Shown here piece after piece: positions 10,800-38,429 of a DNA stretch of 64,000 nt. The position numbers and the translations under genes were made by a program. The notes below the pieces were generated by a model. It was not told the origin of the DNA. It did no database searches and saw only the letters and a program-made list of their open reading frames with translations. Where the stretch lies: positions 96,001-160,000 of the forward strand of contig CBEVQO010000002.1 in assembly GCA_965552055.1 (NCBI GenBank), written 5' to 3'. The DNA is from an uncultured bacterium. Lineage in GTDB: Bacteria; Hydrothermota; UBA3073; NMUJ01; CBEVQO01. Within the stretch, counting starts at the first letter, position 1; each line of letters opens with the position of its first letter.

Positions 10800-12776
10800 T
10801 TATAAAATTTTTAGGATATTTTTCACTTTTGTAAGTCCTTCTTTTGCTTTATCGTAATGTGGGTCAATTTCAAGTGCTTTCTCAAACGCCATCTTCGCCT
10901 CTTCATACCTGCCCATCCCAAATAATGCTTCGCCCTTCCATCTCCATGCGATTTCGGCATCCTTCTCGGGATTTAATTTAATAAATTTCTCTGCTGTTTG
11001 AAGAGCTTCTTCATATTCTCCCAGCAAACAGCATGCTTCTGCAAGACCAAGCCAGCCATCGGGCAACATGGGATTCAATTCAACAACCCTGCAAAATGCC
11101 TCTTTCATCTCTTTGTATTTCTCCATATATCTATAAGTCCAGCCAAGTTCTGCATAAATCTCCCATTTATCACCTTCATATTTTAATGCTTCTTTAAAAG
11201 ATTTCTCTGATTCTTCGTAGTTTCTTAATTCAAAGAAAACTCTTCCTTTGTAAAACCATGCTGTTGAGTGCTCTGGCTTCATTTCGGTTACTTTATCGAG
11301 TATTTCAAGTGCTTTTTCAAATTCGCCAATTTCAAATAATGCCCTTCCTTTTATAAAAAGTGCCCTTACATCTTTTTCATCATTTTTTAATATTTCGTCC
11401 GCTATTTCAATTGCGCTCCAGTATTTTTTAAGTCCGATAAACGCACTTGCTTTGAGATGAAGTGCTTCCATATTTTTCTCTTTTTCAAGAACCGCATTAC
11501 ATAATTTTATCACTGATTGGTAATCTTTTGTCTCTTTCAACATAAGTTCTGCTTCTCTGATTATTGCATCTTTGCATGCTGGGTCAATCTTCCTTGCTTT
11601 CCTAAAAGCATTTATTGCCTTTTTATTTTCACCCATCTCTTCCAGCACTTTTCCAAGATAATACCAGTAAACGGGATTTTTCTCATCGTCTTCTATAGCT
11701 TTTTCTATACAATATTTTGCTTCCTTATAATTTCCTTCTTCCATGTATTCGATTGCATCCGAGAAAATCGTTGAAGCCGAATATTCTTCTTCTGGCAATT
11801 CTATTTTCTCCTTTATTATTTTATCTGATGGATTGCCGAAATGAGCATATCCGCACCATACTATTGACCTCTTTCTATAAAATTCATTGCGAAGTTCCAG
11901 AAGTATATGTCCTATTGTTTCGCCTTCCAGCATCTTTCTGTAAAATTTTACAGCAAAATTTGCACTATCATGTGAGGGAATTTTAAAAAATGAACCTATA
12001 TAATGTCTCACACCTGCTTCAACAAATCCTTTCGCAATATCAAAAGAAGTTTCACATGCATTTGCAAATATGAGGAAAACTTTTTCTAAAGGTAAATCTT
12101 TAACATCTTCCGCTTTTAACTTCTCTCCTTTGTAAAGTTTCCAGCCATCTTTTTCCGCATGCCCTATGTAATGAATTATGTTATATTTAAATAGATTCGC
12201 TTTGATTTCCTGTTTTGATGCCGTAAATCCGCCTCGCAAATCAAGTGATTTAATTCTTTTCTTTTTCTTCAATCTGCTTAATCTGTTGATGATTTCAATT
12301 GTTTCCAATTTTGCATCTTTTTCTATATCTCTATCTTCTGTTGGATTTTTTATTATAAGCATTTTTAAGGGTGGGTAAATTTTTTCGAATTTTCTTTCTC
12401 TTTTTATTCTTATAATGCGTGCAATTTGGAATTTAAGTCCCCAGAATTCATCATCATATATGATTTCATAAGGAATTTGTAAAAGCCCCTCTTCAACTTC
12501 AAAAAGCAATTTGCTTCCTTCTCTCAATCTTTTAAAAGCGGGTTCAAATTCTTTAAACATAACTTTAAATAAAGTTTTGCCAATAGATTTTATTTCCTCT
12601 GTAAACTCATCAAAATCTTTGCCCGGTATTACAATATTACATTTTTCATAAAATTTTTCGCAAATTTCCTTTATATTTTCTATTTTTATTTTTTTCTCGG
12701 TAATTCCTGCGTATCGGTGGATTTTAGGTCGCACAAGTATATAATCGTCGATTTTAAAAAGATGAATTTCTTTCAC
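10800..12776 (-). CDS. CHAT-domain (caspase-like) protease with C-terminal TPR array
   Basis: LQIPYE, IIHYIGHA (catalytic His), FANACET (catalytic Cys), FAVKFY, YAHFGNP, followed by many TPR repeats. Confidence 0.9.
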   Translation of the reverse strand: MKEIHLFKIDDYILVRPKIHRYAGITEKKIKIENIKEICEKFYEKCNIVIPGKDFDEFTEEIKSIGKTLFKVMFKEFEPAFKRLREGSKLLFEVEEGLLQIPYEIIYDDEFWGLKFQIARIIRIKRERKFEKIYPPLKMLIIKNPTEDRDIEKDAKLETIEIINRLSRLKKKKRIKSLDLRGGFTASKQEIKANLFKYNIIHYIGHAEKDGWKLYKGEKLKAEDVKDLPLEKVFLIFANACETSFDIAKGFVEAGVRHYIGSFFKIPSHDSANFAVKFYRKMLEGETIGHILLELRNEFYRKRSIVWCGYAHFGNPSDKIIKEKIELPEEEYSASTIFSDAIEYMEEGNYKEAKYCIEKAIEDDEKNPVYWYYLGKVLEEMGENKKAINAFRKARKIDPACKDAIIREAELMLKETKDYQSVIKLCNAVLEKEKNMEALHLKASAFIGLKKYWSAIEIADEILKNDEKDVRALFIKGRALFEIGEFEKALEILDKVTEMKPEHSTAWFYKGRVFFELRNYEESEKSFKEALKYEGDKWEIYAELGWTYRYMEKYKEMKEAFCRVVELNPMLPDGWLGLAEACCLLGEYEEALQTAEKFIKLNPEKDAEIAWRWKGEALFGMGRYEEAKMAFEKALEIDPHYDKAKEGLTKVKNILKIL

Positions 12777-12782
12777 AAATTT

Positions 12783-12809
12783 ATTATAATTTGCATTTTA
12801 TATTGTCAA
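12783..12809 (-). promoter_or_regulatory. Sigma70-like promoter TTGACA-N15-TATAAT of the CHAT-TPR gene
   Basis: Perfect hexamers; GTG start 6 nt downstream with no SD. Confidence 0.7.
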
Positions 12810-13108
12810 GAATTCTTCCAGTGAGGATGTGAGAGTCCCATTGTGAAAAATGTTTCAACGATATTTGCGATAAAATGCGAAAATTTGTGGGGAAATTTTA
12901 ATTTGCCTTCCAGTAAGAATTCAACAGTTTCGTGAATCAATATCCCTAACTTCTCAAACACCGAGCATTTTTGAAAAATGTAAATCTTATCATAAATCCA
13001 TGCACCCGTTTCCTTTTTCAATTTTATAACCTCTCCCTTTTCATCATGCAAAATAAGATTCACATCAGTAAGAACAATTTTTAAAGGAAAGTTTATTTTC
13101 TTTTTCAT
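12806..13108 (-). CDS. Small hypothetical protein with HExxE...H motif (possible minimal zincin-like metalloprotein)
   Basis: LIHETVEFLL...HKFSH; start overlaps the upstream stop. Confidence 0.55.
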   Translation of the reverse strand: MKKKINFPLKIVLTDVNLILHDEKGEVIKLKKETGAWIYDKIYIFQKCSVFEKLGILIHETVEFLLEGKLKFPHKFSHFIANIVETFFTMGLSHPHWKNS

Positions 13109-13485
13109 TCTCGTTGAAATTTGCCATTTTTATTTATTTCTATAAGAATTTTTTCAATTAGTTTATCAACTTCTTTAAGGCGAGACTCCTTTATTTCGAG
13201 ATCATAAGGAAATCCTTCAATCCATTCTTTTAATTCATAAAGAACATCTAAAATTTGCCCATCCGCTTTTTCTTCACAATAACCAAAGATAACTTCTTTT
13301 GCTTTTTCCCACCCGTTAATAAGTACTTTCCTAAACACTCTAAGCAGGAAATCTTTTTGTTCGTCTATACTTAATGTTATATTACCTTTCTTTATATCCT
13401 CAAATATTTTGCGTAGCTTTTCACAAAATTCAGATTCATCGCGAATGCGAAAAATCTCTTTGCAAATTTCCTTCCACTCTCTCAT
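13105..13485 (-). CDS. Hypothetical helical protein
   Basis: Strong SD AAGGAGGGAG before ATG 13485. Confidence 0.65.
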   Translation of the reverse strand: MREWKEICKEIFRIRDESEFCEKLRKIFEDIKKGNITLSIDEQKDFLLRVFRKVLINGWEKAKEVIFGYCEEKADGQILDVLYELKEWIEGFPYDLEIKESRLKEVDKLIEKILIEINKNGKFQRE

Positions 13486-13525
13486 AGCTCCCTCCTTTTT
13501 CATAACATTATTACATCTCATTACT

Positions 13526-16260
13526 TCACATTTTATTTTTAAGAATATTTAACCTTTGGTAGAATTTTCGATTATCTTTTAAATCGTCATAAGTTGAAAT
13601 AATCAACACTTTCCTTTCAAGGCGGGTACTTTCATCTATTTCTGAAAGTTTCCTTATCACAAAACCTGCTTTTTTATATTTTTCTTCTTTCTCTTTCTGA
13701 TGCCTTAAATATTTCTCATCTTCCATTCCATAGTGCTCCCATAGTATTTCTTTATCTTTGGATATTAATTTAAAATCGGGACATACTCCAATGTCGAGAT
13801 ACGCGGATAAAGGTTCATATTGATATTCTATCTCTGCTTTGCGCAAGAGATTAGCAATTAAGCATTCCTGCCAACTTCTTACTTTTTCTCCATTCAAAGT
13901 AATAATTCTCAAATTTTCGGGTAGCAATCTCACATCTATAGGATTATCAAACAAATATGTTTTTCTTTTTAATAGCTCGGAAGCACTTACATTGAGTAAA
14001 TTTGCAATGTGGTCTTCTACTATTATATAAAGCCGCCTCTGAGCACGAGTTACAGCGGTATACATCATCTCTCTCGATTTAAAATGCTTTAAACCTTTGG
14101 GAATAACCAATAACACATTTTCAAATTCACTTCCCTGACTCTTATGTATAGTTATGGCGTAAGCATAATCTAAATTTTCTCCTAACTGATTTAAATAAGC
14201 AAATTTCTTTGGAGGAAAGAAAAATTTAACTTTTCCATTTCTTAACACATATCCCATCATTCCGTTAAATACTTCTATTTTATAATCATTTTTAGTTTGA
14301 ATCACTTTGTCTCCCATATAAAACTGTTTTTGTAACACAATATCTGCTTTCTTTGCAAATCTGGATTCTTGGCGTAAAAAGAGACTTAAATTATAGGAGC
14401 CATTTTCACCTTTAATTCTAGTTGGGGTTAGAATCTGTAATTTATCCTCATATACTAAAAATTTATAAAAACCCTTTGCATCTACAGAAAAATCGTTTTC
14501 CCTGAGTAATTCCTCAATTGCTTTTTCCACCTCCTTTCGTATATTATTTTTAACAACTTTTACAGTTATGACTTCTTTCTCATCGGTTCTTATTGAAAAC
14601 TTATCCGCGTTATCTTCTGAAATTTTATTACTGAATAATTCATTTAATATTTGTTCTTTTATTGCATAAGGTGTATCTGTGAGAAATATTTTAGAGAACT
14701 CAACTATCTTTTTACATTCAGTACGAAGAATTTTTTCTAATTTTACAATACAATCCTTGTGGTTTTTCTGGAGATATTGATAAAGGTCATAGAAAGGCTT
14801 GCCAGCATCTACAGGCGGAAGTTGATTCACATCCCCTATCATTATAAAATACTGTAAATTGTTTTTATTGATAAGGGTAAGTAGCATCCCTAAAGTTTGA
14901 GTATCTACCATAGATGCTTCGTCTATAATTATGGCATCAAGCTTCTTTTTGCGTGATTCTTCTGGAACTTCTTTCAAAATAAAATATTCAAAGTCATAAA
15001 AATTGCGTAACTCAGTTGATATAAATCTGTGTATGGTTTTGACTTCAAGGATTCCTTTCAACTTTTCCATCGTTCTCATGGCTGCTTTTCCAGTAGGAGT
15101 TAATACTTTTATTTCTTTTAATCCATTTTTTAACATTGCTTTTACAAGTGCTTTTATTACATGTGTTTTTCCACTTCCAGCAGGGCCTGTTAAAATACCC
15201 ACTCTCTTTCTAAGAAGAGATTTAACCGCATTTATTTGCTCTTTTAATATTTCCTCGTATTCTTCTTGGATTAAATTTACGAATGCGTTTTCTTTCAAAT
15301 CTTCTTTGATTTCGTCCTCTGTTACATCAGCTTCAGGTTGTGGCAAGCTATTCAAATATTCGATTATTTCCCCTATTCTTTTTTCAAATCTTTTTACCTC
15401 TTTTAAAGTATAAACCCAAATTTCATCTCCATTTACTTTTACTTTATCTATTTCTACTTTTTCCTGAATGAAATTTTCGTATTCCTTTATTTTGTTTATA
15501 AACTCCTTCTGATTTATATCATAAATATCTTCTCTGTTTCTTCTTTTGAAATACTCCATAATTTCTAAATCTGTTAAAGATGTATGCCCTTCTTTTAAAG
15601 CTTGCTTTAATAAAGTAATCAACAATGCTCTTATTCTCTCCTTGTTTACACTATCAAATTTTTTGTTAAGTTCTTCAAAGCGCCTCTTTTCACCAAAATC
15701 AATTTCCTCAAAAGTTACAGGTTCTAATAATCTCTTCCTTTTTCTTTGAAATATAAATATAATTCCTGATAAGGTATTACAAAAATAGGATTTTCAAAAT
15801 CAACTTTTAAATCAAAAGATACATTAATCTTGTTTTTCTTACTGTCACTACTTATATTTGAAATTTCTTTTATTTTTAGACATGCTGCTATTATTTTATC
15901 CTCTGCTATTGGATTTTCTCTAATGTGTACCAGAGCATATCCCCCTTTCACTAACTCGAGCATTTCCGTTATCTCATCTTCCTTTCCTTTAGTTACTCCA
16001 TAAAACGCTCCCCAGAGTCTTCCAGTGCTGAAAAGTTCTTTTTCAATACCACAAGGTGGATTTTGAATTTCTTCTATTTTCTTTCCCGCACAATTCTCGC
16101 ATTTTTCTGTTCTTTTCTTATTTGCCCAATCCCAACCGTATTTTGTTGATTTTACCCAGTTAAAAGATTCGCAATAGACATTTTCCTTGGGATTACGGCA
16201 TATTCTCCCGTTCCAACCCATATCGTGCCATGCTACCATTACAGCAAGATGTTTAAACAT
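13526..16260 (-). pseudogene. RecD-like SF1B helicase with N-terminal WHD/Cys domain and C-terminal PD-(D/E)xK-like nuclease; split by an internal deletion and frameshift
   Basis: ORF 15724-16260 matches the N-terminus of the paralog at 19747-22593. A shifted frame at ~15730 resumes homology (PVTFEEID...KERIRALL). Motifs GPAGSGKT, IIDEASM, GDVNQLPPV, AITIHKSQGSE, YTAVTRA; C-terminal VRSWQE..IAN..YEP..PDF..WEHYG. Confidence 0.8.
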
Positions 16261-16278
16261 AACCCCCCCCTTTCTTTA

Positions 16279-16941
16279 TTAAAGTTTTTCTAATAAAATA
16301 TCAAAGCGCGCAATTATACTTTTTTCTTTTCTAATTTTAATGGTATAAACTTTTTTCTCAAAAAGTAAAGTTACAGGTTCTTTTGTCAATGTAGCGATTA
16401 GATTTCCATTTGCAAATAATAATGCTTCTGCATCTTCTATTGGTTTATTTTCTTCTTTGTCCTTTATTTCAATTAACTTCAGATTTATTTTATCATCTTT
16501 TGTCTGTACATCGAGTGTAACTTTTATCTTTTCTGTTTCGCTCTCAATTTTCCATGCGTTTGGCAGTTTTTTACCGCTCCGGGTAGTGATAAATGCTCTT
16601 TCTTCTATATGGGTGCTTCCGTATAACTGGCGTGTTGCTATCTGAAACAGCTTTATGGATAACAAAAGATGCAGGACAGTTGAACACATTTCTTTTTTCT
16701 TCTCTCTTTCCAGATATTTCTTTAAACTTTTCATTTCCATCACTTTGCGAAAACATGCATCACATTCTGTAAGATGCTTCTCAAACACTTCACGCAACTC
16801 ATCCGGCAGAGTGCCATCAACATATCCTGCTATCCAGTGTTCGTCATACTCTTTACAATCGGGTATGGGCTCCGTTTTTCTCATCTCTCTCAATGCCCTT
16901 AAGAGCCATTCAATATCATCGTTGTCAAAATCAGGACACAT
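16279..16941 (-). CDS. Zinc-finger (zf-HC2/ZAS) anti-sigma factor 1
   Basis: YVDGTL...FEKHLTECDAC (HxxxCxxC); overlaps the upstream sigma gene. Confidence 0.8.
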   Translation of the reverse strand: MCPDFDNDDIEWLLRALREMRKTEPIPDCKEYDEHWIAGYVDGTLPDELREVFEKHLTECDACFRKVMEMKSLKKYLEREKKKEMCSTVLHLLLSIKLFQIATRQLYGSTHIEERAFITTRSGKKLPNAWKIESETEKIKVTLDVQTKDDKINLKLIEIKDKEENKPIEDAEALLFANGNLIATLTKEPVTLLFEKKVYTIKIRKEKSIIARFDILLEKL

Positions 16942-17833
16942 TTTCCCTCCTTTTTATATTTTTGAATTTCTTTTCAATCTCCTTTCTTACTCTGTGAATA
17001 ATCTGGTCAACATAATTACGATTTATTCCTAAAAACTCTGCTATTTGTTCATAGCAGGGTCTCCTTGCACTCTCCGGGACAGCTTTCCCCTCCTTTAAAT
17101 ACTTTATTATCTGCCATTCTATTTTTGCATCCATTAAAACGAGTTCATCGGTTATTTCATCAATCCTTTTCTTTGTCAATTTCATTATGGTTAAAACTTC
17201 TCTCCTATCTTCAAGTATATTGAATTCAGGCCATAACCACAATTTAAAGACGATTCTTTTAAGAGGGGGAAGTTTCTCTATTTCTTTTCTTATTTCCCTG
17301 CAAGTCATTTCCGTTATAATTTTATTTTCTTCGGTTAGATAGCCAATCAGTCCTTTTGGAGGCTTTGTTTTAGCTCTGGTAAACTTCTTTTCTAACTCTT
17401 GCTCTCTTTTGCTTTTCTTCTCCGGAGACAATCTTTCTTCAATCTCTTCTAAATTTTTTTCATCCATTTTAATTTCGCGTAATTTTCTTATAAGAATGCG
17501 TGGAAGCCAATTTATAAAAATTCCTGTTATCCATGTTGTGAATTTAGCTTTTGTTCTGTGATTTGGATCGTATCGTTTTATTATTTCAAGATTTGACAAT
17601 AAATAATTATAAAGGAAATCTCTGCAAATATCTTCTTTTTCATCAGAATCTAACTCCTCGAGTATCTGGAATCCCATCTCTTCTTTTCCTCTGAGTTTAC
17701 TCAAAATAATGCGTTCAATAAGTCCCTTTAAAACAGAGATATACTTGTCGAGCGCAAAAATTGCTTTTTTGCAGGCATCTAAATCACAATTATGACACTT
17801 TTCTAATTGCTCTCGTGAAACTAACTCATTCAT
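16931..17833 (-). CDS. ECF-type sigma70 factor 1
   Basis: Region-2-like EDICRDF..RYDP..KAKFTTWITGIFIN; region-4-like IEKLPP..YEQIAEFLGINRNYVDQIIHRVRKEI. Confidence 0.75.
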   Translation of the reverse strand: MNELVSREQLEKCHNCDLDACKKAIFALDKYISVLKGLIERIILSKLRGKEEMGFQILEELDSDEKEDICRDFLYNYLLSNLEIIKRYDPNHRTKAKFTTWITGIFINWLPRILIRKLREIKMDEKNLEEIEERLSPEKKSKREQELEKKFTRAKTKPPKGLIGYLTEENKIITEMTCREIRKEIEKLPPLKRIVFKLWLWPEFNILEDRREVLTIMKLTKKRIDEITDELVLMDAKIEWQIIKYLKEGKAVPESARRPCYEQIAEFLGINRNYVDQIIHRVRKEIEKKFKNIKRRENVS

Positions 17834-17850: not shown

Positions 17851-17877
17851 ATTTTACATCAAATACAGCGTTGTCAA
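17851..17877 (-). promoter_or_regulatory. Sigma70-like promoter TTGACA-N15-TAAAAT for the ECF1 operon
   Basis: Hexamers upstream of an SD (GAAGGGGG) and ATG 17833. Confidence 0.65.
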
Positions 17878-18203: not shown

Positions 18204-18596
18204 TCAATTAAAATCATCTACTTCGTCCTTTGTGTTTAACTTTACAAAATCTTTTAATTCTTTCTCTTCTGCTTCTTCCAGTAAAACATAACAATTTCTG
18301 TTCTTGACTTTTTTAAATTCTAACAATGCAATTTCGGCAACATCAAAGAATTTCTGGAGCCCGCTGTAAATCCTCTCTGCCTCTTCTTTTATCCTTTGAG
18401 GAACTCTCTCTGGATAGGCACACATTATTCGCACCATTTGATTTAAATCCTGCAAAAATTTTACAGGAATAACCAGAACATCATATCTCACAAATTCTCT
18501 TTTTTCATTTAACATTATTAAAATATGATAACCCAGCAATTTACTCAATATCTTCATTGTATTTTTAAATGAACCTCCACTTTTTTCAATCCACAT
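18204..18596 (-). CDS. Hypothetical protein
   Basis: 130 aa; SD GGGGAGGT; overlaps the end of the ClpX-like gene. Confidence 0.6.
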   Translation of the reverse strand: MWIEKSGGSFKNTMKILSKLLGYHILIMLNEKREFVRYDVLVIPVKFLQDLNQMVRIMCAYPERVPQRIKEEAERIYSGLQKFFDVAEIALLEFKKVKNRNCYVLLEEAEEKELKDFVKLNTKDEVDDFN

Positions 18597-19716
18597 ATCT
18601 ACCTCCCCTTTTAGATTTGATTTTTACATTTAATTCGCCATTTTTTACATCGACAATTATTTTGCCTTCTTTTTGCTGACCGAATATTTCAAATGACATT
18701 TCTTCGAGATGACGCATTATAACGCTTTCTATCGCTCTTGCCCCTGTCTGACGCCTTACAGCTTCTTCTACAATGAAATCTTCTGCACGGGGAGTAATAC
18801 GAATCTCAAATCCTTCTTCCTGAAATTCGTTTTTCACCTCCTTCAGTTTCAAATGCAATATTTCTTTTAATGTCTTTTTATCAAGTGGCTCAAAAACAAT
18901 AATTCTCTGAAAGCGGGCAATGAGTTCTGGCAGAAATCCATAAGATTGAAACTTTGTTACATCTTCGGCGGTATACTGGTCTATTTCGTATGCTATTTTA
19001 TTTTCCACACTTTTTATTTCTTTTAAGAAACCTATTTCCTTTTTAACACTGTGGGTTAAAAATCCGCTAAATGCTCCTATTGCGAAAAATAAGATATTTG
19101 AAGTATCGATGTGACCTTCGAGTGACAAATCGTCTCTTCCGTAACTTACTTTAGAGCCTTCAACGAGTTTTAGTAATTCGCGCTGAACCCCGTATCCTGA
19201 TACATCCTTTGTCGTACCAGCACCGGCAAATCTAATATTGCTGTGACAACCCGCTATCTTGTCAAATTCATCTATCGCAACTACTCCGAATTTCGCAAGA
19301 AGCACATTGCCATGTGCAGCCTCTATCAATTTGTAAGGTATATTTAACACACTTTCGCCAACATAACCAGTTTCGGAATATTTCGTGATATCAATTATCA
19401 CATAAGGTAGTTTTAAAATTTTACCGAATAACAGTTCTATTATATAGGTCTTGCCGCATCCAGTTGGTCCCATCAATAAATAATTTGTCTTTGGTGGTAG
19501 ATTTTTCTTTTCTCCGCTTAATATTTTCTTTACTCTTTTGAAATGGCGATATGCAGCTACGCACATAGCTTTGCGAGCACGCTCCTGACCTCTGTAGCCA
19601 AGTTCCTCCAGCTTTTGATAAAGCTCCTGAGGAGTATAAAGCGGAGCAGACAGGAGTTTATTTATCGCAGCCTCATTTGCCTCAATATGTTCTCTATATC
19701 GATAAAATGGCTTCAT
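18586..19716 (-). CDS. ClpX-like AAA+ unfoldase lacking the N-terminal zinc-binding domain
   Basis: GQERARK, LLMGPTGCGKT, ETGYVGE, IDEFDKI, DVSGYGVQRELLKLVEG, IGF loop, GFLPELIARF, TGARAI. Confidence 0.85.
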   Translation of the reverse strand: MKPFYRYREHIEANEAAINKLLSAPLYTPQELYQKLEELGYRGQERARKAMCVAAYRHFKRVKKILSGEKKNLPPKTNYLLMGPTGCGKTYIIELLFGKILKLPYVIIDITKYSETGYVGESVLNIPYKLIEAAHGNVLLAKFGVVAIDEFDKIAGCHSNIRFAGAGTTKDVSGYGVQRELLKLVEGSKVSYGRDDLSLEGHIDTSNILFFAIGAFSGFLTHSVKKEIGFLKEIKSVENKIAYEIDQYTAEDVTKFQSYGFLPELIARFQRIIVFEPLDKKTLKEILHLKLKEVKNEFQEEGFEIRITPRAEDFIVEEAVRRQTGARAIESVIMRHLEEMSFEIFGQQKEGKIIVDVKNGELNVKIKSKRGGRYVD

Positions 19717-19731: not shown

Positions 19732-19761
19732 ATTATTACCTATTTCTCAAGTTTTCTTACA
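19732..19761 (-). promoter_or_regulatory. Island-specific bipartite motif TGTAAGAAAA-N13-TAAT (putative ECF promoter), copy 1
   Basis: TGTAAGAAAA cttgagaaatagg TAATAAT just upstream of the ClpX-like SD/ATG. Confidence 0.65.
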
Positions 19762-22593: not shown

Positions 22594-22624
22594 AGCGGCA
22601 CCTCCATTACTATCTTCTCTCCTT

Positions 22625-23347: not shown

Positions 23348-23554
23348 TTATTCCTGTTCGACTTTGGGTTCCCAATTTCCGCACACTTCGTTATCTCTCC
23401 TTTTATCCTGCCAGTATCCGCACCAGCCCTCTGCAGATGTTTCGCCCTCTTCACAGGTAACTTCAATATACCCTGTCGCAGGATTGTAGTAACTGCCACT
23501 AAAATATTTGCAAGTAGCACAACATCTTATATCTGGTCTGATTGAATAACGCAT
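23348..23554 (-). CDS. Small Cys-rich (Zn-binding?) protein
   Basis: CCATCKYF...C...GWC...C..WE; SD GGAGGGG; coupled to the AGOG stop codon. Confidence 0.6.
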   Translation of the reverse strand: MRYSIRPDIRCCATCKYFSGSYYNPATGYIEVTCEEGETSAEGWCGYWQDKRRDNEVCGNWEPKVEQE

Positions 23555-30285: not shown

Positions 30286-30864
30286 TCACACAATATTTAA
30301 CCTTAACAAATAGTAATAATCTCCTATTATGCTTAAGCATAAAGCAAATGTATTGATATCATCGGTATCCTTTCCGAACAACTTTGACATAAGTTTAGAA
30401 ATTTCTCTATAATTATATATTTTCTTACCGCGCTTGAAATTATAAATTTCATTCAATTTAACATGTGTAAAAATTGTTTTCTTTGTTAGGATATTCATTA
30501 CAGTTTTAGTTATCCCTGAATGAGTGATTTCAAAATGATATAATTCGTTTTTCTTTTCATCGATATAATAATCGGTAGCGGCTTTTGCAGGCCAGATGAT
30601 AATTGTATTCGTTATCGTTTTTATGATATTTATTCTGGAAACAATGTATTTGAATATCCTTCTTGATAAAATCAATTGGGAGAAACTTCTTACAGGGAGT
30701 ATCCATACGATGACACCTTCTATATTTCCCGAGATTTTATTCTTTTTAAGATAAATTTTGTAATCTTTTTTCATCAGCGGTAGAATCAGAAAATAAAGTA
30801 TTCTTATGAGAACTGTCTCCACAGCTTTAAACAAGTTTGCCATTATAATGTTTTTTAACTTCAT
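30286..30864 (-). CDS. Hypothetical protein
   Basis: 192 aa; SD AAGGAGGGTG. Confidence 0.55.
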   Translation of the reverse strand: MKLKNIIMANLFKAVETVLIRILYFLILPLMKKDYKIYLKKNKISGNIEGVIVWILPVRSFSQLILSRRIFKYIVSRINIIKTITNTIIIWPAKAATDYYIDEKKNELYHFEITHSGITKTVMNILTKKTIFTHVKLNEIYNFKRGKKIYNYREISKLMSKLFGKDTDDINTFALCLSIIGDYYYLLRLNIV

Positions 30865-30917
30865 TTCACCCTCCTTTTATTGCCCGCCCCGATGGGGCAA
30901 GATTTAAATTCTATAAC

Positions 30918-31142
30918 TTATGCACTTTTCTTATTGATTTTTGCTGCAATAGAAGCGAGCATCGCTATTATCACACCAGGTAAGGAAAATAAGAGCATCC
31001 AGAGTGCTTTACCATAATCGTACACAGCATCGGCTACTCCTTTTCCTCCGTAGGGAATATGTACTGCCTCCGAATAAAATGCAATAGAAATTATAAGACA
31101 AATAGCGAACCATATCCAACCAATGACACTTAATGCTCTCAT
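30918..31142 (-). CDS. Small two-TM membrane protein
   Basis: Two hydrophobic segments; SD GGAGGGGGAG. Confidence 0.7.
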   Translation of the reverse strand: MRALSVIGWIWFAICLIISIAFYSEAVHIPYGGKGVADAVYDYGKALWMLLFSLPGVIIAMLASIAAKINKKSA

Positions 31143-31190
31143 CTCCCCCTCCTTCTTATTATTTTAACGCCCCATCGGAGCAGGCAAAAT

Positions 31191-31742
31191 TTATCGTAAA
31201 CATTCAAATGAACTCAAAACTTTTTTAATAAGTTTTTCCATCTCACCGCCTACCGCCTGATGAAGATAATCTGTATTAATCGTCCACCAGACATTATATA
31301 TTGCAAAAGGTTCAAAATGCAGATAATAAAATCGTGAATATAAACCAAAAGGATGCAATGTCACCACTAAATGCCATTTCCTATCTTTACTGTCATAAAT
31401 ATAAGAGCGACCTTGAATTATCCAGCCTTCTATTTTATCGCCAATGCATGCTGCTGCAAGATATTCGGATATAGACTTTTCATCCCATCTTTGTGGTGAT
31501 GGAAATGAAATTATTCCAATGCATAATCCATACCTGACAGGTGTTTCATAGTCGCCTACTTTAGCACTATAAACAGTGCCATACGCACCCATGTCAACAG
31601 TGCGTTCTGTTTTTACATAAAAGTCAGGAACCTTTACTTTGAATAAGCCACTCGGATGACGATACCATTTCATATCCACACAGAATGCTCCACTTCCGTC
31701 TACAATAAAAATCATAAACAATACTATTTTTAAATACTTCAT
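31191..31742 (-). CDS. Exported hypothetical protein
   Basis: MKYLKIVLFMIFIV signal-like start after SD GGAGGGGG. Confidence 0.65.
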   Translation of the reverse strand: MKYLKIVLFMIFIVDGSGAFCVDMKWYRHPSGLFKVKVPDFYVKTERTVDMGAYGTVYSAKVGDYETPVRYGLCIGIISFPSPQRWDEKSISEYLAAACIGDKIEGWIIQGRSYIYDSKDRKWHLVVTLHPFGLYSRFYYLHFEPFAIYNVWWTINTDYLHQAVGGEMEKLIKKVLSSFECLR

Positions 31743-31807
31743 AACCCCCTCCTTCCCCATCGGAGCAGGCAAAATTTACTTTCGATTTTCAAAGAGCTCT
31801 CTCAATT

Positions 31808-31838
31808 ATTTATTACTTCTTTCATGTATTTTCTTACA
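31808..31838 (-). promoter_or_regulatory. Putative ECF promoter, copy 2
   Basis: TGTAAGAAAA tacatgaaagaag TAATAAAT. Confidence 0.6.
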
Positions 31839-32478
31839 CAAATTTTTTAATGAGTTCATCTTTGTATGCATCTGTCATTTCTTCTCGCTCTCTTGCTCTC
31901 ATTTTTTCATTATATTCTTTAACTGCTTCTTTTATCCTTCTGCGTAAGTTCTCCGGACTCGAAGCATAACCCAGTATTTTATTGAACTGAGAAAGAATAT
32001 AGCGTAAATGTAAAGGTGTGGGAATTAATACACTTAATGGTATTTTTTGCTCCTCACCAAATACATTTTTTGTTCTTTTCCATATTATGAAGTAAAATTC
32101 TTTGTAATCTGCAACTACTTCAAAATCTTCATACCCATAAATGTATTTAAATCTGACTTCTTCGGGCTTCACTTCTACTTTTTCACACTTTATCCATTTA
32201 AGACAATCAAGCACTTCTTCGAGTTTTAAAGGTTTATATTTGCCACCCTGACATATTGCTGTCATAAAGCGCCCCTGATCCGGACGCTGATGTAACCTGC
32301 ATTCTATCATCGTTTTTACCATTTTTGCAGATAAATGACTACTACTGCTCTCAACAAATCGATAACCTTTCAGTTCTGCCCATACCGGCATAATAACACG
32401 AATATCATAGGGATTGTAAATATACCAATCCCAAATACCTTCTAATTCTGCCCACACAGGATTTTTAATTTTTAACAT
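31834..32478 (-). CDS. Hypothetical protein
   Basis: SD AAGGAGGTG before ATG 32478. Confidence 0.65.
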   Translation of the reverse strand: MLKIKNPVWAELEGIWDWYIYNPYDIRVIMPVWAELKGYRFVESSSSHLSAKMVKTMIECRLHQRPDQGRFMTAICQGGKYKPLKLEEVLDCLKWIKCEKVEVKPEEVRFKYIYGYEDFEVVADYKEFYFIIWKRTKNVFGEEQKIPLSVLIPTPLHLRYILSQFNKILGYASSPENLRRRIKEAVKEYNEKMRAREREEMTDAYKDELIKKFV

Positions 32479-32504
32479 ATCACCTCCTTTTTGCCATCTC
32501 ATAT

Positions 32505-32535
32505 TTATATTAAACTAAATTACGATTTTCTTACA
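32505..32535 (-). promoter_or_regulatory. Putative ECF promoter, copy 3
   Basis: TGTAAGAAAA tcgtaatttagtt TAATATAA. Confidence 0.6.
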
Positions 32536-33790
32536 AATCTATTTTCAGAATTAACCAGTCGTTCCTTTTAAAGGGCTTTTCATCTGTCGTTAATAATATT
32601 TTTCTTTTAGCTTTTAAATTAAGATATTTCTTCCATTCTTCGCCTCTCCATAATCCGTCTGTTAGTATTACAAGCATATCCTGTGCTTTTATCCGCTTAC
32701 TTACTTCAGCGAGCGCTTCTGTAGGGTCTGTTCCACCCCTACCTTTTATCTTAAAACTCACTTTATTGGTAAATCTCTTAAAACCATAAAATTTAACATC
32801 CCAGCATCCCCAGTAAACTTCTGCTTCTTTGCTCATGCTTTTAATCTCTCCCATAAATTGTTGGAGTTGTTTTTTGTCTATACTTCCACTCGTATCTAAA
32901 AGGACGAAAACCCTGCCCTTTTCGAGATATAATCTCCCTTTCGCATCCGGTACCTTTCTGCTGGGACGCTTCCATGTGGGAATGCAAAAACTCGAAATCC
33001 ATTCCCTGTAATATGTGCGTAAAAGGCGTTTCCAGTTTACTTTGCTTTTAAATAGAATATCAACAAGTTCTTCCAAGCCAGCGGGAAGATATCCTGCTGT
33101 TTTTGCTAATACCAAAGCACGCCTGAACTCATCCCTGATTTTTTCCTTTTCTTCATCTCTGACTCCCGAACCCTCGCTAGGATATTTCTTTTCTTCTCCT
33201 CCGGCTCCTGAACCCTCGCTAGGATATTTCTTTTCTTCTCCTCCGGCTCCTGAACTCTCATCTCCTAAATCCTTGCGAGGATAAAGGTCGCTTCCTTTTA
33301 TAATATTAAGGATACGGTCTATTCTTATTTTTCCCGATTTTACCTTTGATAATAATTCTTTGTAAATTTCTTCGGTACTCATCCTTTTTATTTCATATAC
33401 GGATTTTCCAATCAATTGAGCGATTGTAAAAGGAGTTATTTCCCTGTAAGATAGTTTGAAATTAAGTTCATCTAAGTATTGATTGACTTTGCAATCGGCT
33501 GCTATATTCCATAGCAGGGCATCTATTTCATCCAGATTTTTTATCCTTTCGCAGTGTTCAAGCACTATATGAAGCAACTCGTGAAATAATAATTTAACGC
33601 CTTCTGCAATTGTGTGAATTTTTGATGTATTCAAAAAGATTTCCAATCCATTCGTATAAGCCGGAACTTCAGATTCTTCGTCTATTCTTAGATATTTCTG
33701 AACCTTCCACAACACAGGGACAAAAAAGGGAAATAATACAGAACTAATTTCAATCGCTGCTTCAAATATGCTTTTCAACAGGTTGCTCAT
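32531..33790 (-). CDS. DUF2201-like metallopeptidase-vWA protein 1
   Basis: AYTNG, HELLH (HExxH), WNIAADCKVN, MIDAS DTSGS, GRGGTD, ILTDG. Confidence 0.87.
   Translation of the reverse strand: MSNLLKSIFEAAIEISSVLFPFFVPVLWKVQKYLRIDEESEVPAYTNGLEIFLNTSKIHTIAEGVKLLFHELLHIVLEHCERIKNLDEIDALLWNIAADCKVNQYLDELNFKLSYREITPFTIAQLIGKSVYEIKRMSTEEIYKELLSKVKSGKIRIDRILNIIKGSDLYPRKDLGDESSGAGGEEKKYPSEGSGAGGEEKKYPSEGSGVRDEEKEKIRDEFRRALVLAKTAGYLPAGLEELVDILFKSKVNWKRLLRTYYREWISSFCIPTWKRPSRKVPDAKGRLYLEKGRVFVLLDTSGSIDKKQLQQFMGEIKSMSKEAEVYWGCWDVKFYGFKRFTNKVSFKIKGRGGTDPTEALAEVSKRIKAQDMLVILTDGLWRGEEWKKYLNLKAKRKILLTTDEKPFKRNDWLILKIDL
33168..33255. repeat. 42-bp coding tandem repeat (GSGAGGEEKKYPSE) in the vWA1 linker
   Basis: gaaccctcgctaggatatttcttttcttctcctccggctcct occurs twice. 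Confidence 0.85.
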
Positions 33791-33802
33791 AATACCTCCT
33801 TT

Positions 33803-34936
33803 TTACCATTCTTTTTTAAACTTTGCAACTTTTGTTCCTAAATCTTTAATTAATTCTTTGAGAGATGTATCTATCATTTTGAGCATTTCTTCGTAAATTT
33901 CTCTCCTCTTTTTGACTGGCAACATCCTGAAGAAAAGAGAAAGAGTAAGCATCACCATTTCTCTGTCCTCAGAAAGAGCAGGAATGAAAATCACTTCCTC
34001 AATTTTCTTATATTTTTCAGGGAAATTTTTTAACAAATAGTGAGCAAGATGTGTGAAAAAGAGATATTTTATATCCATCGTTTTCAATTTATCTCCGGGA
34101 TATTTTTTATTCTTAATACACTCTTCTATATCCGGGAAATTCCTTGTTACTTTGATAAACTGATAAAATTTACTTCCAACTTCGCCTCCCAAAAATGCCT
34201 GACAATCTTCTTCGTAATACTTTTCATTTTTGTTTAGAAATTCGCTGAGCATCGTCCAGCTTCTTGGAGTCGGATAAGGTTCTACAGCTGTACCCGAATC
34301 AGGTGGTTTGTAAAAATCCTCCGGAAACTTCATCAAATATGCTATTACATTGGGGTTAGTTCTCTCTTTTGTTGACTCATAAGAAATCCATTCTTTAACG
34401 GTGGCAGGTTCAACTTCATATACTGCTGCGCGATTCATTATCGGAGTGGCTAATTCTGTTGCTACATCGCTGTATTCCGGGGGATTGCCTGCACCCACCA
34501 CCATTACATCGGGATGAAGTTTCAACCATCCAACTCTTTTATCCAGCAACAATTTGAATAAAATGCTCTGTACATCGGGACGCAATGTGTTAGATATTTC
34601 ATCCAGAAATAATACACCCGGACACTTACTTAATGCATGCAATGGTCTGTTATACTTGAACTGAAGCTTTCCATCATTTTCACGGGGTATAAAGAAATCT
34701 TCCTGTGTAACCTCATATAATCTAATATCGAGCAAGATAAAGGAATTTTTAATTTCTCCGTCGGACAAACTATCATCCCACTCCAGATATTTCAATCCCA
34801 TCTCTTTTGCTTTTTGTTCTGCAAATTCATGAACCTGCTCAGATTTACCGATACCAGGACCTCCAAATAGTATCACAGTGCGAGGATAATGACGATTGAG
34901 TGTCTCCAATACACGATTTATTTTTAATTTCTTCAT
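33803..34936 (-). CDS. MoxR-like AAA ATPase 1
   Basis: GGPGIGKS, LFLDEI, GAGN, MNR, PTPRSW; SD before ATG 34936. Confidence 0.87.
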   Translation of the reverse strand: MKKLKINRVLETLNRHYPRTVILFGGPGIGKSEQVHEFAEQKAKEMGLKYLEWDDSLSDGEIKNSFILLDIRLYEVTQEDFFIPRENDGKLQFKYNRPLHALSKCPGVLFLDEISNTLRPDVQSILFKLLLDKRVGWLKLHPDVMVVGAGNPPEYSDVATELATPIMNRAAVYEVEPATVKEWISYESTKERTNPNVIAYLMKFPEDFYKPPDSGTAVEPYPTPRSWTMLSEFLNKNEKYYEEDCQAFLGGEVGSKFYQFIKVTRNFPDIEECIKNKKYPGDKLKTMDIKYLFFTHLAHYLLKNFPEKYKKIEEVIFIPALSEDREMVMLTLSLFFRMLPVKKRREIYEEMLKMIDTSLKELIKDLGTKVAKFKKEW

Positions 34937-34949
34937 AACACCCCCCAGC

Positions 34950-35420
34950 TTATTGAAAGAGGCAAATAAAAGATGCAATTGATGTGAGCCTGTCATTTAA
35001 ATTGTTAAGAATTGAGGTGACATCTCTTTTTAATTCTTCTTTACTCTTGATATTCTTCTTCCATATCATAAAATAAGTTGAAATTATTTTGATTGAATAA
35101 CCTTTCACTCCGAGAGATTTGTATATATCTTGCATTATACAACCTCTTATGTCCTTATTTTGAAATGAACCCATGTATTTGCTGAAAAGATAAATCAGTT
35201 TTTCGAATTCAATTGTGAGAAATACTTTGTAGTGCTCTCGCTTCACAATCCACATTATAAGTTGAGTATCGTATCCAAATTGTTTCAGCAGAGTTTGTTT
35301 AACTTGAATCTCATATCCATTTTCTCCCAGTAATTTACCTGTTAAATCGAAAGGAAACTGAACCTTTGATTCCAAATCATGCATAATTTCTCTCATTTCA
35401 CACTGTAATTGCTTAATCAT
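34950..35420 (-). CDS. Hypothetical protein
   Basis: SD AAGGAGGTG; C-terminus resembles the neighbouring ORF. Confidence 0.65.
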   Translation of the reverse strand: MIKQLQCEMREIMHDLESKVQFPFDLTGKLLGENGYEIQVKQTLLKQFGYDTQLIMWIVKREHYKVFLTIEFEKLIYLFSKYMGSFQNKDIRGCIMQDIYKSLGVKGYSIKIISTYFMIWKKNIKSKEELKRDVTSILNNLNDRLTSIASFICLFQ

Positions 35421-35444
35421 AACACCTCCTTTAAATTTATAATT

Positions 35445-35942
35445 TTAGCCGTAAGCCCGTTGTTGATATAATATCATCATAATATCGTTGAGAACCGAGA
35501 TGCAAAATTGTTTCACTTTTGTTTCACTATATATATCTCTTGCTATACGGAGGAAACCCTTTCCAACATCAACTTTATAACCTCTTAATTTAAGCCGGTT
35601 ATATATTTCCCCCAAAATGCATCTTTTTACATTTTTGATTACTTTCTTTATTTTTTTCTCTTCCTTTTTATCTTTAATTTTTATCACTGCATTTGGACAG
35701 CCAACTGCAACCCATATTCTATAAATCTTGGACCTTTTAACAATGCGAAGCATAATCCGGGCAGTGATGTTGAAATCAGGGAAATTAATCAACACGGTGG
35801 ATTTACCATCAATCTGAAAATCCGAGCTGTTATCACCAAGCTGGCATATTGTAAGGCAAGGTGGGTTCTTAACACCCAGATATATCGCACGCATAATCCT
35901 TGCCCCGGCTCCAAAGCACAAAAAATCATGCATACGAAACAT
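35445..35942 (-). CDS. Hypothetical protein
   Basis: SD GGGGGGTG before ATG 35942. Confidence 0.6.
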   Translation of the reverse strand: MFRMHDFLCFGAGARIMRAIYLGVKNPPCLTICQLGDNSSDFQIDGKSTVLINFPDFNITARIMLRIVKRSKIYRIWVAVGCPNAVIKIKDKKEEKKIKKVIKNVKRCILGEIYNRLKLRGYKVDVGKGFLRIARDIYSETKVKQFCISVLNDIMMILYQQRAYG

Positions 35943-35965
35943 AACACCCCCCTTGTTTCTCATTA

Positions 35966-35995
35966 ATTATTACTGCTTTTGATTATTTTCTTACA
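35966..35995 (-). promoter_or_regulatory. Putative ECF promoter, copy 4
   Basis: TGTAAGAAAA taatcaaaagcag TAATAAT. Confidence 0.6.
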
Positions 35996-37217
35996 AATCT
36001 ATTTTCAAAATTGTCCAGTCATTTCTCCTGAAAGGTTTTTTACTCGTAGTCAAAAGCAATTTTCTTTTCGCATTTATATTAAGATATTTTTTCCACTCAT
36101 TTCCATACCATTCCCCATCCGTAAGAATTACAAGCATATCATGTGGTTTTATAACTTTTTTAACTTCCTTTAAAGCTTTTGTAGGGTCTGTTCCACCTCT
36201 CCCTCTTATCTTGAATTTTGTTTCACTATTTTTTACCTTTTGCAAACCGTAGAAATCAACATCCCAGCATCCCCAGTAAACTTCTGCATCCTTATTCATA
36301 GTTTTTATCTCAGCCATAAACTGTTCAAGTTCAGCATGCCCGATACTACCGCTTGTATCTACGAGTACATAAACTTTACCTTTTCCCAAATATAATTTGC
36401 CTTTGACATCGGGAACTTTTCTGCTCGGACGCTTCCATGTTGATACACAAAAATGAGATATCCATTCACGGAAATATGTACGCAAAAATCTCTTCCAGTT
36501 TATCTTGCTTTTGTCTTTTGCATCCACAACCTCTTCCATCTTTGCTGCTACATTGCCAGCACTCTTCAGCGCTTCTGTTATACCCCGCCTAATTTCATCA
36601 AGGTCTATATCTTCAAATTGATTTCCCACACCTGCTCCCTCTTCACATTCTTCCATATCTTCATCTACTTCAATAACTTCAGGTATGCATCCACTTGATA
36701 AACATTCCAGTAAATCCCAATCTACTTCTTTTAATCTACCTCGACATTTTTTTACAATCTTTATCTCATGAATCTTCACTACTTCGGCGAGTTTTAAATA
36801 AATTTGTTCTGTTGTCATTTTCTCTATTTGCTGTGGAGAAAAGCCAGTTAATCCTTCAATGATTCTCGCTGTTTGCATATCCTTCGTCTTTAAACCGAGT
36901 TTTGACATTATTGCATTCACTTTACAATCTGCTGCAAGATTCCACAATAATCTATTTCTTTTATCCATAAATTTCAATCTTAAAGGATGTTCAAGAATAT
37001 AATGGAAGAAAACATGCAAAAAATTTATGCATTCTTCTCCTGTGCTTAACCTCTCGGGGTTTACCCTTATTATCCTGCCATCTGTCTTTACAGGTGTGTC
37101 CATTTCTCTATCTTCTACAACTGCTTTTTCAACCCTGTATAATGCTGGCAAAAGAAAATGTGCTTTGGAAACCGTTAATAATTGCCTTACCTTTTTAATT
37201 AATGTTGCGGTATCCAT
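35991..37217 (-). CDS. DUF2201-like metallopeptidase-vWA protein 2 (HExxH degenerate)
   Basis: KTDG, HVFFH in place of HExxH, WNLAADCKVN, DTSGS, GRGGTD, ILTDG. Confidence 0.85.
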   Translation of the reverse strand: MDTATLIKKVRQLLTVSKAHFLLPALYRVEKAVVEDREMDTPVKTDGRIIRVNPERLSTGEECINFLHVFFHYILEHPLRLKFMDKRNRLLWNLAADCKVNAIMSKLGLKTKDMQTARIIEGLTGFSPQQIEKMTTEQIYLKLAEVVKIHEIKIVKKCRGRLKEVDWDLLECLSSGCIPEVIEVDEDMEECEEGAGVGNQFEDIDLDEIRRGITEALKSAGNVAAKMEEVVDAKDKSKINWKRFLRTYFREWISHFCVSTWKRPSRKVPDVKGKLYLGKGKVYVLVDTSGSIGHAELEQFMAEIKTMNKDAEVYWGCWDVDFYGLQKVKNSETKFKIRGRGGTDPTKALKEVKKVIKPHDMLVILTDGEWYGNEWKKYLNINAKRKLLLTTSKKPFRRNDWTILKIDL

Positions 37218-37229
37218 TTTTACCTCCCG

Positions 37230-38336
37230 CTATGTTGCGATTAACTCATCTGCGGATTCAATTCTACTGCTCAATAATTCTCTAAGTTCTACATGCATTA
37301 TCTGGAGTATCTTCTCTATCTCATCTTTTTTCCATCCTTTTAAAATTGCGTGCAATGTAACTACAAGAAATTCTTTATTTCTTTTCAGCATGCGTAGCAG
37401 GATTTTATTTTCAACTTCTTTATACCTGTCTGGATGTTTCCTCACCCACATTGCCACATGGAAAGCAAAATTATATAATTTATCTATTGAATTTATCGTA
37501 TGTAGTTTTAGCGGATTCTTCAAAATATCTTCAACCGATGGTATCCTATATCTCGTTGATAAGAAAAAGTTACTCCCCACTTCTCCTCCCAGGAATGCCT
37601 GACAATCTGCTTCAGTGAAATCCGGATTGTTATTCAGGAAGCAGGATAAAAGTGTCCAGCTTCTAGGTGTAGGATAAGGTTCTGATGTTGCTCCTTTTTG
37701 CGGTGGCAGATAAAAATGCTCCGGATGTTTCAATAAATAAGTGGCGACATAGTGATTGAGGCGACCCTTCTCTGTTTCATAAGAAATCCATTCTTTAACA
37801 CTTACATGCTCCACCTCATATATGGCTGCACGGTTCATTATCGGAGTGGCTAACTCCGTTGCTACTTCGCTGTATTCGGGTGGATTACCCGCACCTATAA
37901 CCATCACATCTTTATGAAGCTTTAGCCATCCAACTCTTTTATCGAGTAACAATTTAAACAAAATGCTCTGCACATCCGGGCGAACGGTATTTGAGATTTC
38001 ATCAAGGAAAAGCACACCGGGATGTTGACCCAAAGCTCTCAGAGGTCTGTTATATTTGAAAACTATGCCGTCAGAAGTTTCACGGGGAATAAAGAAATCT
38101 TCGGGAGTAACTTCATACAATCTCATATCCAGAAGTATAAATGCATTCTTTAAATCTCCTTCTGTAAGCCTATCATCCCATTCCACAAAGTTCAGTCCCA
38201 ATTTCTCTGCTTTCTCCCTGGCAAACTCCCTAACCTGTTCGGATTTGCCGATGCCAGGTCCACCAAAGAATATCACCGTCCCGGGAAAATGTTTATGCAG
38301 GGTTTCTTTTATCTCATTTACCTTGATTTTAACCAT
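37230..38336 (-). CDS. MoxR-like AAA ATPase 2
   Basis: GGPGIGKS, LFLDEI, PTPRSW; close paralog of 33803-34936. Confidence 0.87.
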   Translation of the reverse strand: MVKIKVNEIKETLHKHFPGTVIFFGGPGIGKSEQVREFAREKAEKLGLNFVEWDDRLTEGDLKNAFILLDMRLYEVTPEDFFIPRETSDGIVFKYNRPLRALGQHPGVLFLDEISNTVRPDVQSILFKLLLDKRVGWLKLHKDVMVIGAGNPPEYSEVATELATPIMNRAAIYEVEHVSVKEWISYETEKGRLNHYVATYLLKHPEHFYLPPQKGATSEPYPTPRSWTLLSCFLNNNPDFTEADCQAFLGGEVGSNFFLSTRYRIPSVEDILKNPLKLHTINSIDKLYNFAFHVAMWVRKHPDRYKEVENKILLRMLKRNKEFLVVTLHAILKGWKKDEIEKILQIMHVELRELLSSRIESADELIAT

Positions 38337-38361
38337 ATCACCCCCTTATGCTACTTCATTA

Positions 38362-38391
38362 ATATTTACCCTCTTTTACAAATTTCTTACA
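38362..38391 (-). promoter_or_regulatory. Putative ECF promoter, copy 5 (head of island)
   Basis: TGTAAGAAAT ttgtaaaagaggg TAAATAT; fully intergenic. Confidence 0.6.
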
Positions 38392-38429
38392 AATTTTTGT
38401 TGACAAAAGAATAATTTGTTTAATATTCT

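Follow-up and report, generated by a model that had tools for sequence, protein, structure and literature searches.

What does a CHAT protease act on when it is encoded among sigma and anti-sigma factors, and what do those factors switch on? The question is raised by a 64,000-nucleotide stretch of DNA (the window; contig CBEVQO010000002.1, C2 below, with the window at C2:96001-160000) from an uncultured bacterium of the Hydrothermota. The source genome is 2.2 Mb in size and 97% complete, and its nearest relatives are found only at the order level. Positions 10800-38336 of the window, which we call the island, encode a CHAT protease with tetratricopeptide repeats (TPRs) and two pairs of a sigma factor of the extracytoplasmic function (ECF) type and a zinc-finger anti-sigma factor. 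The locus holds a real, conserved and uncharacterised gene module, a putative protease-gated sigma switch, located in a mosaic island of a single genome; the island as a whole is less general than the switch. We propose, with moderate confidence and judging from sequence, that CHAT cuts the anti-sigma factor after a conserved Arg, which would free the sigma factor to transcribe a small local gene set from TGTAAG-N16-GTAA promoters.

In the CHAT protein, residues H206 and C241 belong to canonical motifs without variation across 56 aligned domains, which agrees with the intact catalytic His and Cys noted in an earlier interpretation of the DNA made from its letters alone (the sequence-only reading). 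It has no signal or transmembrane segment. The two sigma/zinc-finger anti-sigma pairs of that reading are also confirmed. Both sigma factors are divergent ECF-type proteins (TIGR02937, E 6e-11 and 2e-8, each slightly below the curated cut-off), an HxxxCxxC protein is encoded directly after each of them, and the two pairs are paralogous. In a Foldseek search with a model of sigma 1 the best rows were all sigma factors, with no match at E 0.001 for either this model or that of the anti-sigma. With sigma 1 as the query, neither a second cluster (50% library) nor a true viral relative was found, and the search with anti-sigma 1 returned a near-identical protein only.

The full-length CHAT query was swamped by TPR matches, and later searches used the CHAT domain alone. 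Scanning GTDB with an alignment of close CHAT relatives yielded 292 confirmed stretches, the best 80 of which were retained; they span Omnitrophota, Desulfobacterota, Planctomycetota and others. An HxxxCxxC gene (140-330 aa) lies immediately upstream of CHAT in 59 of the 80 relatives (56 of the 71 with 1.5 kb of upstream DNA), and the open reading frame (ORF) preceding it matches TIGR02937 in 51 of 53 cases. A profile built from the anti-sigmas of the 59 relatives, with the window left out, matches both window proteins over their full length (anti-sigma 1, E 1.6e-15; anti-sigma 2, E 1.3e-6). By this profile match, both window proteins are members of a CHAT-linked family of putative soluble zinc anti-sigma factors.

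The linkage is also seen when anti-sigmas are sought independently of CHAT. A sample of 281 genomes yielded 14 full-length family members from 12 genomes, 13 without the seed genome. Ten of these 13 are located directly ahead of a CHAT gene, and one has CHAT 3 kb away on the opposite strand; of the remaining two, one is at a contig end and one is an orphan. One of the 13 was already within the set of 80 relatives. The genomes behind the linkage counts are partly kin, so that the counts overstate independence. Five extra anti-sigma loci in one genome all have CHAT at most two genes away. The genes for CHAT, anti-sigma and ECF sigma form a conserved operon in other phyla. Genome G275 (L089, L223-L227) has seven members of the anti-sigma family, one of them fused to a sigma domain. 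A literature search, with subscription journals mostly outside its coverage, found no description of a soluble CHAT-linked anti-sigma family.

Within its own phylum the protease is rare. Far from being a core gene of relatives, a possibility raised by the sequence-only reading, CHAT, searched with its domain alone, has a relative in just one of the 271 other phylum genomes. CHAT domains of a generic kind are more widespread (56 of 272 phylum genomes), and a sigma or zinc anti-sigma gene adjoins CHAT at no fewer than 5 of 42 such loci. In a quick tree the window CHAT joins the anti-sigma-adjacent clade, apart from the other CHAT domains of the phylum (SH-aLRT 92).

Where might the anti-sigma be cut? 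Only four columns are invariant (56 of 56 rows) among 56 aligned anti-sigmas from several phyla: the zinc-site His, Cys and Cys, and one Arg (R121 and R125 in the window), which is located ~105 residues from the C-terminus. The preceding residue (P2) is mostly Leu or Val, and the Arg is followed by Ser or Gly (P1') in 46 of 56. Independently of the alignment, an Arg motif is present in the expected segment of 48 of the 56 proteins, versus 5.2 (at most 11) in shuffled sequences and 1-6 in other segments, and a looser pattern occurs in all 13 anti-sigmas of the reverse test. The model of the anti-sigma combines a beta-sandwich with a helical zinc domain like that of RslA/RsiW, and places R121 at a turn that joins two strands; in fold searches the N-terminal domain retrieved RslA, RsiW and MucA, and the rest generic beta-sandwiches. 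None of the 56 proteins has a transmembrane segment (top 19-residue hydropathy 1.46). Because the Arg is invariant in the 56 aligned anti-sigmas and the site resembles the HetF cut in PatU3, CHAT likely cuts the anti-sigma after R121/R125.

The candidate output promoters are confined to the island. The sequence TGTAAGAAA-N13-GTAA, the core of which can also be written TGTAAG-N16-GTAA, has four copies in the 2.2-Mb genome, all in the island and on the coding strand (38391, 35995, 31838 and 19761), and copies with one mismatch are found at 32535 and 18649. Downstream of the sites lie the MoxR/vWA pairs, small ORFs and the ClpX-like gene. None of the six precedes CHAT, the sigmas, the anti-sigmas, the leucine-rich repeat (LRR) gene, AGOG, PDC-M57B or the helicases. 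The motif, which had been described as shared by all of the island's genes, is real and island-confined, but limited to four exact and two one-mismatch sites. A blind de novo test was run because the pattern had been read from the sites themselves; among 9+4 words in the 25 regions upstream of island genes, the motif ranked first (4 of 25), and none of 68 blocks of 26 genes reached four sites.

The CHAT gene and both sigma genes have TTGACA-N15-TA(T/A)AAT promoters of housekeeping type, in line with the 15-bp spacer that is the norm in this genome (292 sites versus 25 at 17 bp). Such promoters are found in the window at 10790, 12809, 17877, 29108 and 38400. Scans for terminators and for promoters with 16-18 bp spacers gave chance-level results. 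Two other ECF/CHAT loci have repeated private motifs that are similar in shape. The second one of this genome (L016) has two TGTCAY-N16-CGTAT sites, at C2:351630 and 352355, of four in the genome. Locus L019 has three TGAAAG-N17-CGTATA sites, a pattern with 0 occurrences in the window genome and 0 in 300 shuffles. L019:5362-13188 (G031:C60) comprises genes for an ECF sigma, a 562-aa zinc anti-sigma, TPR-CHAT, DUF1232 and DUF445, with one motif site before the sigma gene.

We hypothesize that the switch would operate as follows. The switch genes would be expressed constitutively and their products held off. A cytoplasmic signal, probably read via the TPRs, would activate CHAT, and the cut would detach the zinc domain, which binds sigma, from the C-terminal beta-sandwich. 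The anti-sigma fragment may then be cleared by general proteolysis. Either of the two freed sigma factors could drive the MoxR/vWA pairs, the small proteins, the AAA ATPase and the ClpX-like ATPase. The output would probably be a conflict or stress response; an anti-phage role is not part of the claim. Most bacterial CHAT proteases have no known substrate, and the CHAT-linked anti-sigma family would supply a named substrate, a predicted cut residue and candidate promoters.

Several observations weigh against this proposal. The window CHAT is a long branch in the tree, with about 30% identity to every relative, and its gene is not adjacent to anti-sigma 1 but 3.5 kb away. By pattern, the Arg motif is missing in two full-length family members of G275, and a related 143-aa protein at the genome's second CHAT locus has no Arg at the aligned place. 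In three of the six promoter sites the TAA of the motif doubles as a stop codon. Two sites end paralogous vWA genes, which leaves three to four independent sites, and the island motif is not enriched upstream of the relatives' sigma genes (5 of 52 versus 4.3).

The features of the island are summarized in the table; gene labels are from profile searches with Pfam, NCBIfam and PADLOC. All 25 ORFs of at least 100 aa in the gene chain 10800-38336 are on the minus strand, and the ~28 kb of co-oriented genes reported earlier is correct.

Table. Features of the island, in window coordinates.
Feature	Position	Strand	Remarks
CHAT-TPR protease, 658 aa	10800..12776	-	PF12770 E 1.7e-16; CHAT N-terminal, then TPRs
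Housekeeping-type promoter TTGACA-N15-TATAAT	12783..12809	-	Directly before CHAT gene
Two small hypothetical ORFs (100, 138 aa)	12806..13521	-	No informative family
PDC-S68-like helicase-nuclease copy 1, broken	13526..16260	-	C-terminal nuclease region kept
Soluble anti-sigma 1, zinc-finger helical domain and beta-sandwich	16279..16941	-	Predicted cut site ITTR121↓SG
ECF-type sigma 1, 300 aa, with insertion	16931..17833	-	TIGR02937
Housekeeping-type promoter TTGACA-N15-TAAAAT	17851..17877	-	Before sigma 1
Hypothetical protein, 130 aa	18204..18596	-	One-mismatch ECF-type site at 18623-18649
ClpX-like ATPase without N-terminal zinc domain	18586..19716	-	Keeps Walker A, GYVG pore loop, IGF motif
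ECF-type promoter motif, exact	19735..19761	-	Ahead of ClpX-like gene
PDC-S68-like helicase copy 2	19747..22668	-	Ends before C-terminal nuclease domain
PDC-M57B homologue, 232 aa	22625..23323	-	PDC-M57B E 1e-64
AGOG N-glycosylase/DNA lyase	23554..24330	-	Pfam, NCBIfam
Stand-alone cytoplasmic LRR array, 1119 aa	24343..27702	-	About 25 units of 38-47 aa; no effector domain
Soluble anti-sigma 2	27716..28402	-	Predicted cut site ALR125↓GG
ECF-type sigma 2	28399..29079	-	TIGR02937; housekeeping-type promoter at 29108
AAA ATPase	29080..30264	-	Best match phrog_14322
Three hypothetical ORFs and 74-aa membrane ORF	30286..32502	-	ECF-type sites 31812-31838 (exact), 32509-32535 (one mismatch)
MoxR (AAA_5) and DUF2201 vWA, pair 1	32531..34996	-	vWA keeps HExxH
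Two paralogous hypothetical ORFs (156, 172 aa)	34950..35963	-	Exact ECF-type site 35969-35995
MoxR and DUF2201 vWA, pair 2	35991..38336	-	vWA (35991-37217) without HExxH
ECF-type promoter motif, exact	38365..38391	-	Non-coding DNA, head of island

Many of the other labels of the sequence-only reading are retained. The LRR array is as described, with a nearly invariant frame and variation at few positions per unit, a pattern that fits a binding surface; close homologues of the array were not found (best 27%), and elsewhere it is not linked to CHAT. AGOG and two MoxR/vWA pairs are present, the latter as AAA_5 MoxR and DUF2201 vWA proteins; a search with MoxR found no viral locus. The two RecD-like helicase genes exist, but are PADLOC PDC-S68 homologues of which neither is whole: copy 1 has an internal deletion of ~195 codons and a frameshift near 15727, and copy 2 stops at profile position 1083-1085 of 1221 (a complete PDC-S68 protein has about 1200 aa). 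The GIY-YIG-like label for 22625-23323 was not upheld, as Pfam did not return GIY-YIG and the match is to PDC-M57B; a PDC-M57A partner was not found among 29 proteins.

The ClpX-like ATPase is supported by NCBIfam and by its conserved motifs, with an equivalog score of 229 bits versus 359 required. Because an ECF-type motif lies before the gene, it reads as an output of the switch, with feedback still possible. Orthologues (50-62% identity) are present in 9 of 271 phylum genomes, and no CHAT domain or zinc-finger gene was found around them (2-40 kb, some on short contigs). In a metagenome scan, one close relative was found on a 3-kb contig beside unrelated genes. ClpX paralogues without the zinc domain recur as a mobile family at 50-69% identity (L067-L080, L182), in contexts that vary between macro domain, DUF2130, MoxR, reverse transcriptase and AIPR genes.

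The 1002 ORFs of the 80 CHAT loci include no homologue of the LRR protein, the helicases, PDC-M57B, AGOG, MoxR or vWA at E 1e-4; one ClpX match among these loci was rejected as an 880-aa ClpB-like protein. The co-occurrence in other genomes that had been suggested as a check is thus found for ECF, anti-sigma and CHAT, but not for LRR, helicases, nucleases or MoxR/vWA, which adjoin CHAT in 0 of 80. Most likely, the LRR, AGOG, PDC-M57B and broken helicase genes are lineage-specific cargo inserted among the switch genes, and the defence-like genes of the island are probably passengers for the most part.

Some further observations concern the surrounding DNA. At 17880-18160, between the 130-aa gene and sigma 1, a short ORF is split over two frames, and a contig of sequencing run X1 shows small indels relative to the window there. 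Contigs of X1 touch 30 of 30 bins of 8000-27900 and none spans the island; X1 may be the source sample. An unlisted Cys-rich 68-aa ORF is located at 23350-23555, with AGOG on one side and PDC-M57B on the other. A divergent 560-aa gene with a weak CsgG-like match lies at 38430-40112, and its Pfam family is also fused to CHAT and cyclase in several CHAT relatives. A dispersed repeat of ~185 bp (41308-41500 and 6752-6930; 24 near-full copies and 74 matches genome-wide) showed no terminal inverted repeat of at least 10 bp. All matches in an Atlas search were below 0.9. PADLOC and array searches of the window detected no cas gene and no CRISPR array, in agreement with the sequence-only reading, and an Rfam search gave no match. 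The only cas1 of the genome is on contig C1, with an array, in a locus that is type I-like as judged by eye; two tandem near-identical ORFs (141 and 150 aa, C1:367243-368117) are located immediately ahead of the cas operon.

Among the alternatives, the one that survives best is that the switch works but is unrelated to invaders, forming a general stress or envelope module, and that the island is a hotspot at which unrelated genes, some of them decaying, accumulate. The surroundings of the CHAT relatives agree with it: genes that recur beside them encode H+-pyrophosphatase, Rrf2, BNR propellers, secreted TPR/Ig proteins and outer-membrane transporters, and PADLOC matches 5 of 118 nearest neighbours, each a lone match (the 118, from 495 neighbours, are the 124 nearest minus three shadow ORFs and three pyrophosphatases). 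Many relatives also have CHAT fused to a class 3 cyclase domain, and codon usage in the island is ordinary; neither codon usage nor GC marks it as recent. We nevertheless consider this alternative unlikely, as both ECF/CHAT loci of the genome sit among defence-like genes (PDC-S68 and PDC-M57B in the island, LeoA/LeoBC at L016), and the MoxR/vWA pairs, which bear the motif, have matches to phage families (phrog_1297, phrog_1314) and a patchy distribution in the phylum (8 of 272). The second locus (C2:344800-356000; L016:1816-13002) encodes an ECF sigma, a small beta-sandwich protein and TPR-CHAT, followed by an M48 peptidase, DUF1232 and three dynamin-like genes with LeoA and LeoBC matches.

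The defence-like surroundings of both loci and the phage-family matches of the MoxR/vWA pairs make a conflict or defence role plausible for this island; no such role characterises the module in its relatives, judging from the PADLOC matches beside them. The defence island of the sequence-only reading is to this extent retained here. PADLOC, which it had named as a check, matches three ORF sets of the window to candidate systems (two PDC-S68, one PDC-M57B); the PDC-S68 copies are incomplete, and PDC-M57 is without its A subunit.

It is improbable that the Arg loop binds CHAT as an inhibitor or pseudo-substrate, or that the anti-sigmas respond via their zinc site (redox), with CHAT acting on other targets. 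There is precedent for both, in that PCi is described as inhibiting PCaspase while being cut by it (10.1101/2023.06.23.546230) and oxidants are described as able to release zinc anti-sigmas (PMC11506125), and the CHAT gene has its own promoter and sits apart from the sigma/anti-sigma pairs. However, the small P1' and hydrophobic P2 residues fit a cleavage site, and the genes are tightly linked in both directions.

The full cascade of the sequence-only reading, in which the LRR protein senses an invader and activates CHAT, the ClpX-like ATPase clears the cut anti-sigma and the ECF factor drives helicase and nuclease effectors as one anti-phage system, is improbable. Its CRISPR-independent core of CHAT, anti-sigma and ECF factor is backed by the gene linkage (59 of 80 relatives, 11 of 13 in the reverse test) and the invariant Arg, but there is no support for sensing by the LRR protein, for a ClpX step dedicated to the cascade or for control of the helicase and nuclease genes by the ECF factor. 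The co-orientation of the genes, the three PADLOC matches, the variable LRR gene directly following anti-sigma 2 and the LeoA/LeoBC-like dynamins at the second locus would suit the whole cascade, as would the cut followed by degradation documented for CalpT (10.1101/2024.05.08.593097). On the other side stand the CHAT loci devoid of the accessory genes; the absence of a PF12770 match from all nine genomes with a ClpX-like orthologue and the presence of a canonical clpP-clpX operon in this genome; and the two helicases, which are incomplete and have no ECF motif. We give little credence to its boldest form, an animal-like, CRISPR-free immune circuit in which a diversifying LRR protein would recognise an invader protein and activate CHAT-TPR, two anti-sigmas would be cut at Arg, and ECF sigmas would switch on MoxR-vWA and ClpX-like machines.

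We return to the proposed protease-gated switch and compare it with known systems. PatU3 contains DUF1822, and HetZ is sigma-like; 0 of 56 anti-sigmas match DUF1822 at E 0.01. As proposed, the switch works like DdvS/DdvA, Csx29/Csx30/CASP-sigma, CalpL/T/S and HetF/PatU3, and by the features tested is a member of none of them. A CRISPR-free cascade from CHAT to a regulator is less new than the sequence-only reading stated, given HetF-PatU3, the ECF54 context and DdvS/DdvA.

The ECF54 context is the nearest published arrangement: an ECF gene, a carboxypeptidase-regulatory-like gene at +1 and a CHAT-TPR gene (Casas-Pastor 2021, PMC7826278), described there without an anti-sigma or a mechanism. 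An ECF gene, a +1 gene and a CHAT-TPR gene are common to both, and 11 of 56 anti-sigma family members, the window proteins not among them, match the carboxypeptidase-regulatory-like Pfam domain weakly (E at most 0.01, best 2.5e-4). As described, ECF54 is actinobacterial, with a subtilase neighbour, no anti-sigma and a GTATCAG/CTCC promoter (PMC7826278), whereas the island has no subtilase, a zinc anti-sigma domain in the +1 gene and another promoter motif.

In Myxococcus xanthus, DdvS/DdvA combine an ECF factor, a zinc anti-sigma and TPR-CHAT and are described as controlling a 26-kb island (PMC11506125) with four GTAA-n16-CGT promoters (PMC6061681). Here, too, an N-terminal zinc anti-sigma domain is encoded after the ECF gene, and the four sites GTAA-n16-(A/G)GT have equal spacing, with the C replaced. 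DdvA is described as one transmembrane protein with a periplasmic TPR-CHAT, whereas here anti-sigma and CHAT are separate and soluble; the CBASS and CRISPR cargo reported there is absent from the window according to PADLOC.

The CHAT protease HetF of Anabaena cuts PatU3 between R117 and S118, and R117 mutants resist cleavage (PMC9457339). HetF-PatU3-HetZ is thus a CRISPR-free system in which CHAT cuts an inhibitor after Arg and relieves a regulator from the inhibitor's operon, as is predicted here; the role described there is developmental. In type III-E systems, the TPR-CHAT protease Csx29 cuts the anti-sigma Csx30 in its C-terminal domain, and the locus has local sigma motifs (PMC10028731). 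The catalytic His/Cys are shared with the window protein, in which the domain order is reversed, with CHAT N-terminal. Csx29 is described as requiring Cas7-11 and target RNA (PMC10028731), which have no counterpart here, and sigma 1 scores 17.7 bits on the CASP-sigma model NF041236 versus a cut-off of 100. CalpL-CalpT-CalpS likewise comprises a protease, an anti-sigma and an ECF factor, with a cut followed by degradation (10.1101/2024.05.08.593097); CalpL is described as a cA4-activated Lon-SAVED protease, and the CalpT degron ends in LAA, whereas the cut predicted here would end in Arg. The helicases and the 232-aa protein share strong hidden Markov model matches with PDC-S68 and PDC-M57, and differ from them in their missing parts; a literature search found no paper naming either system. 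If the proposed switch is correct, the type III-E, DdvA and ECF54 arrangements would be special cases of one widespread switch with different local outputs.

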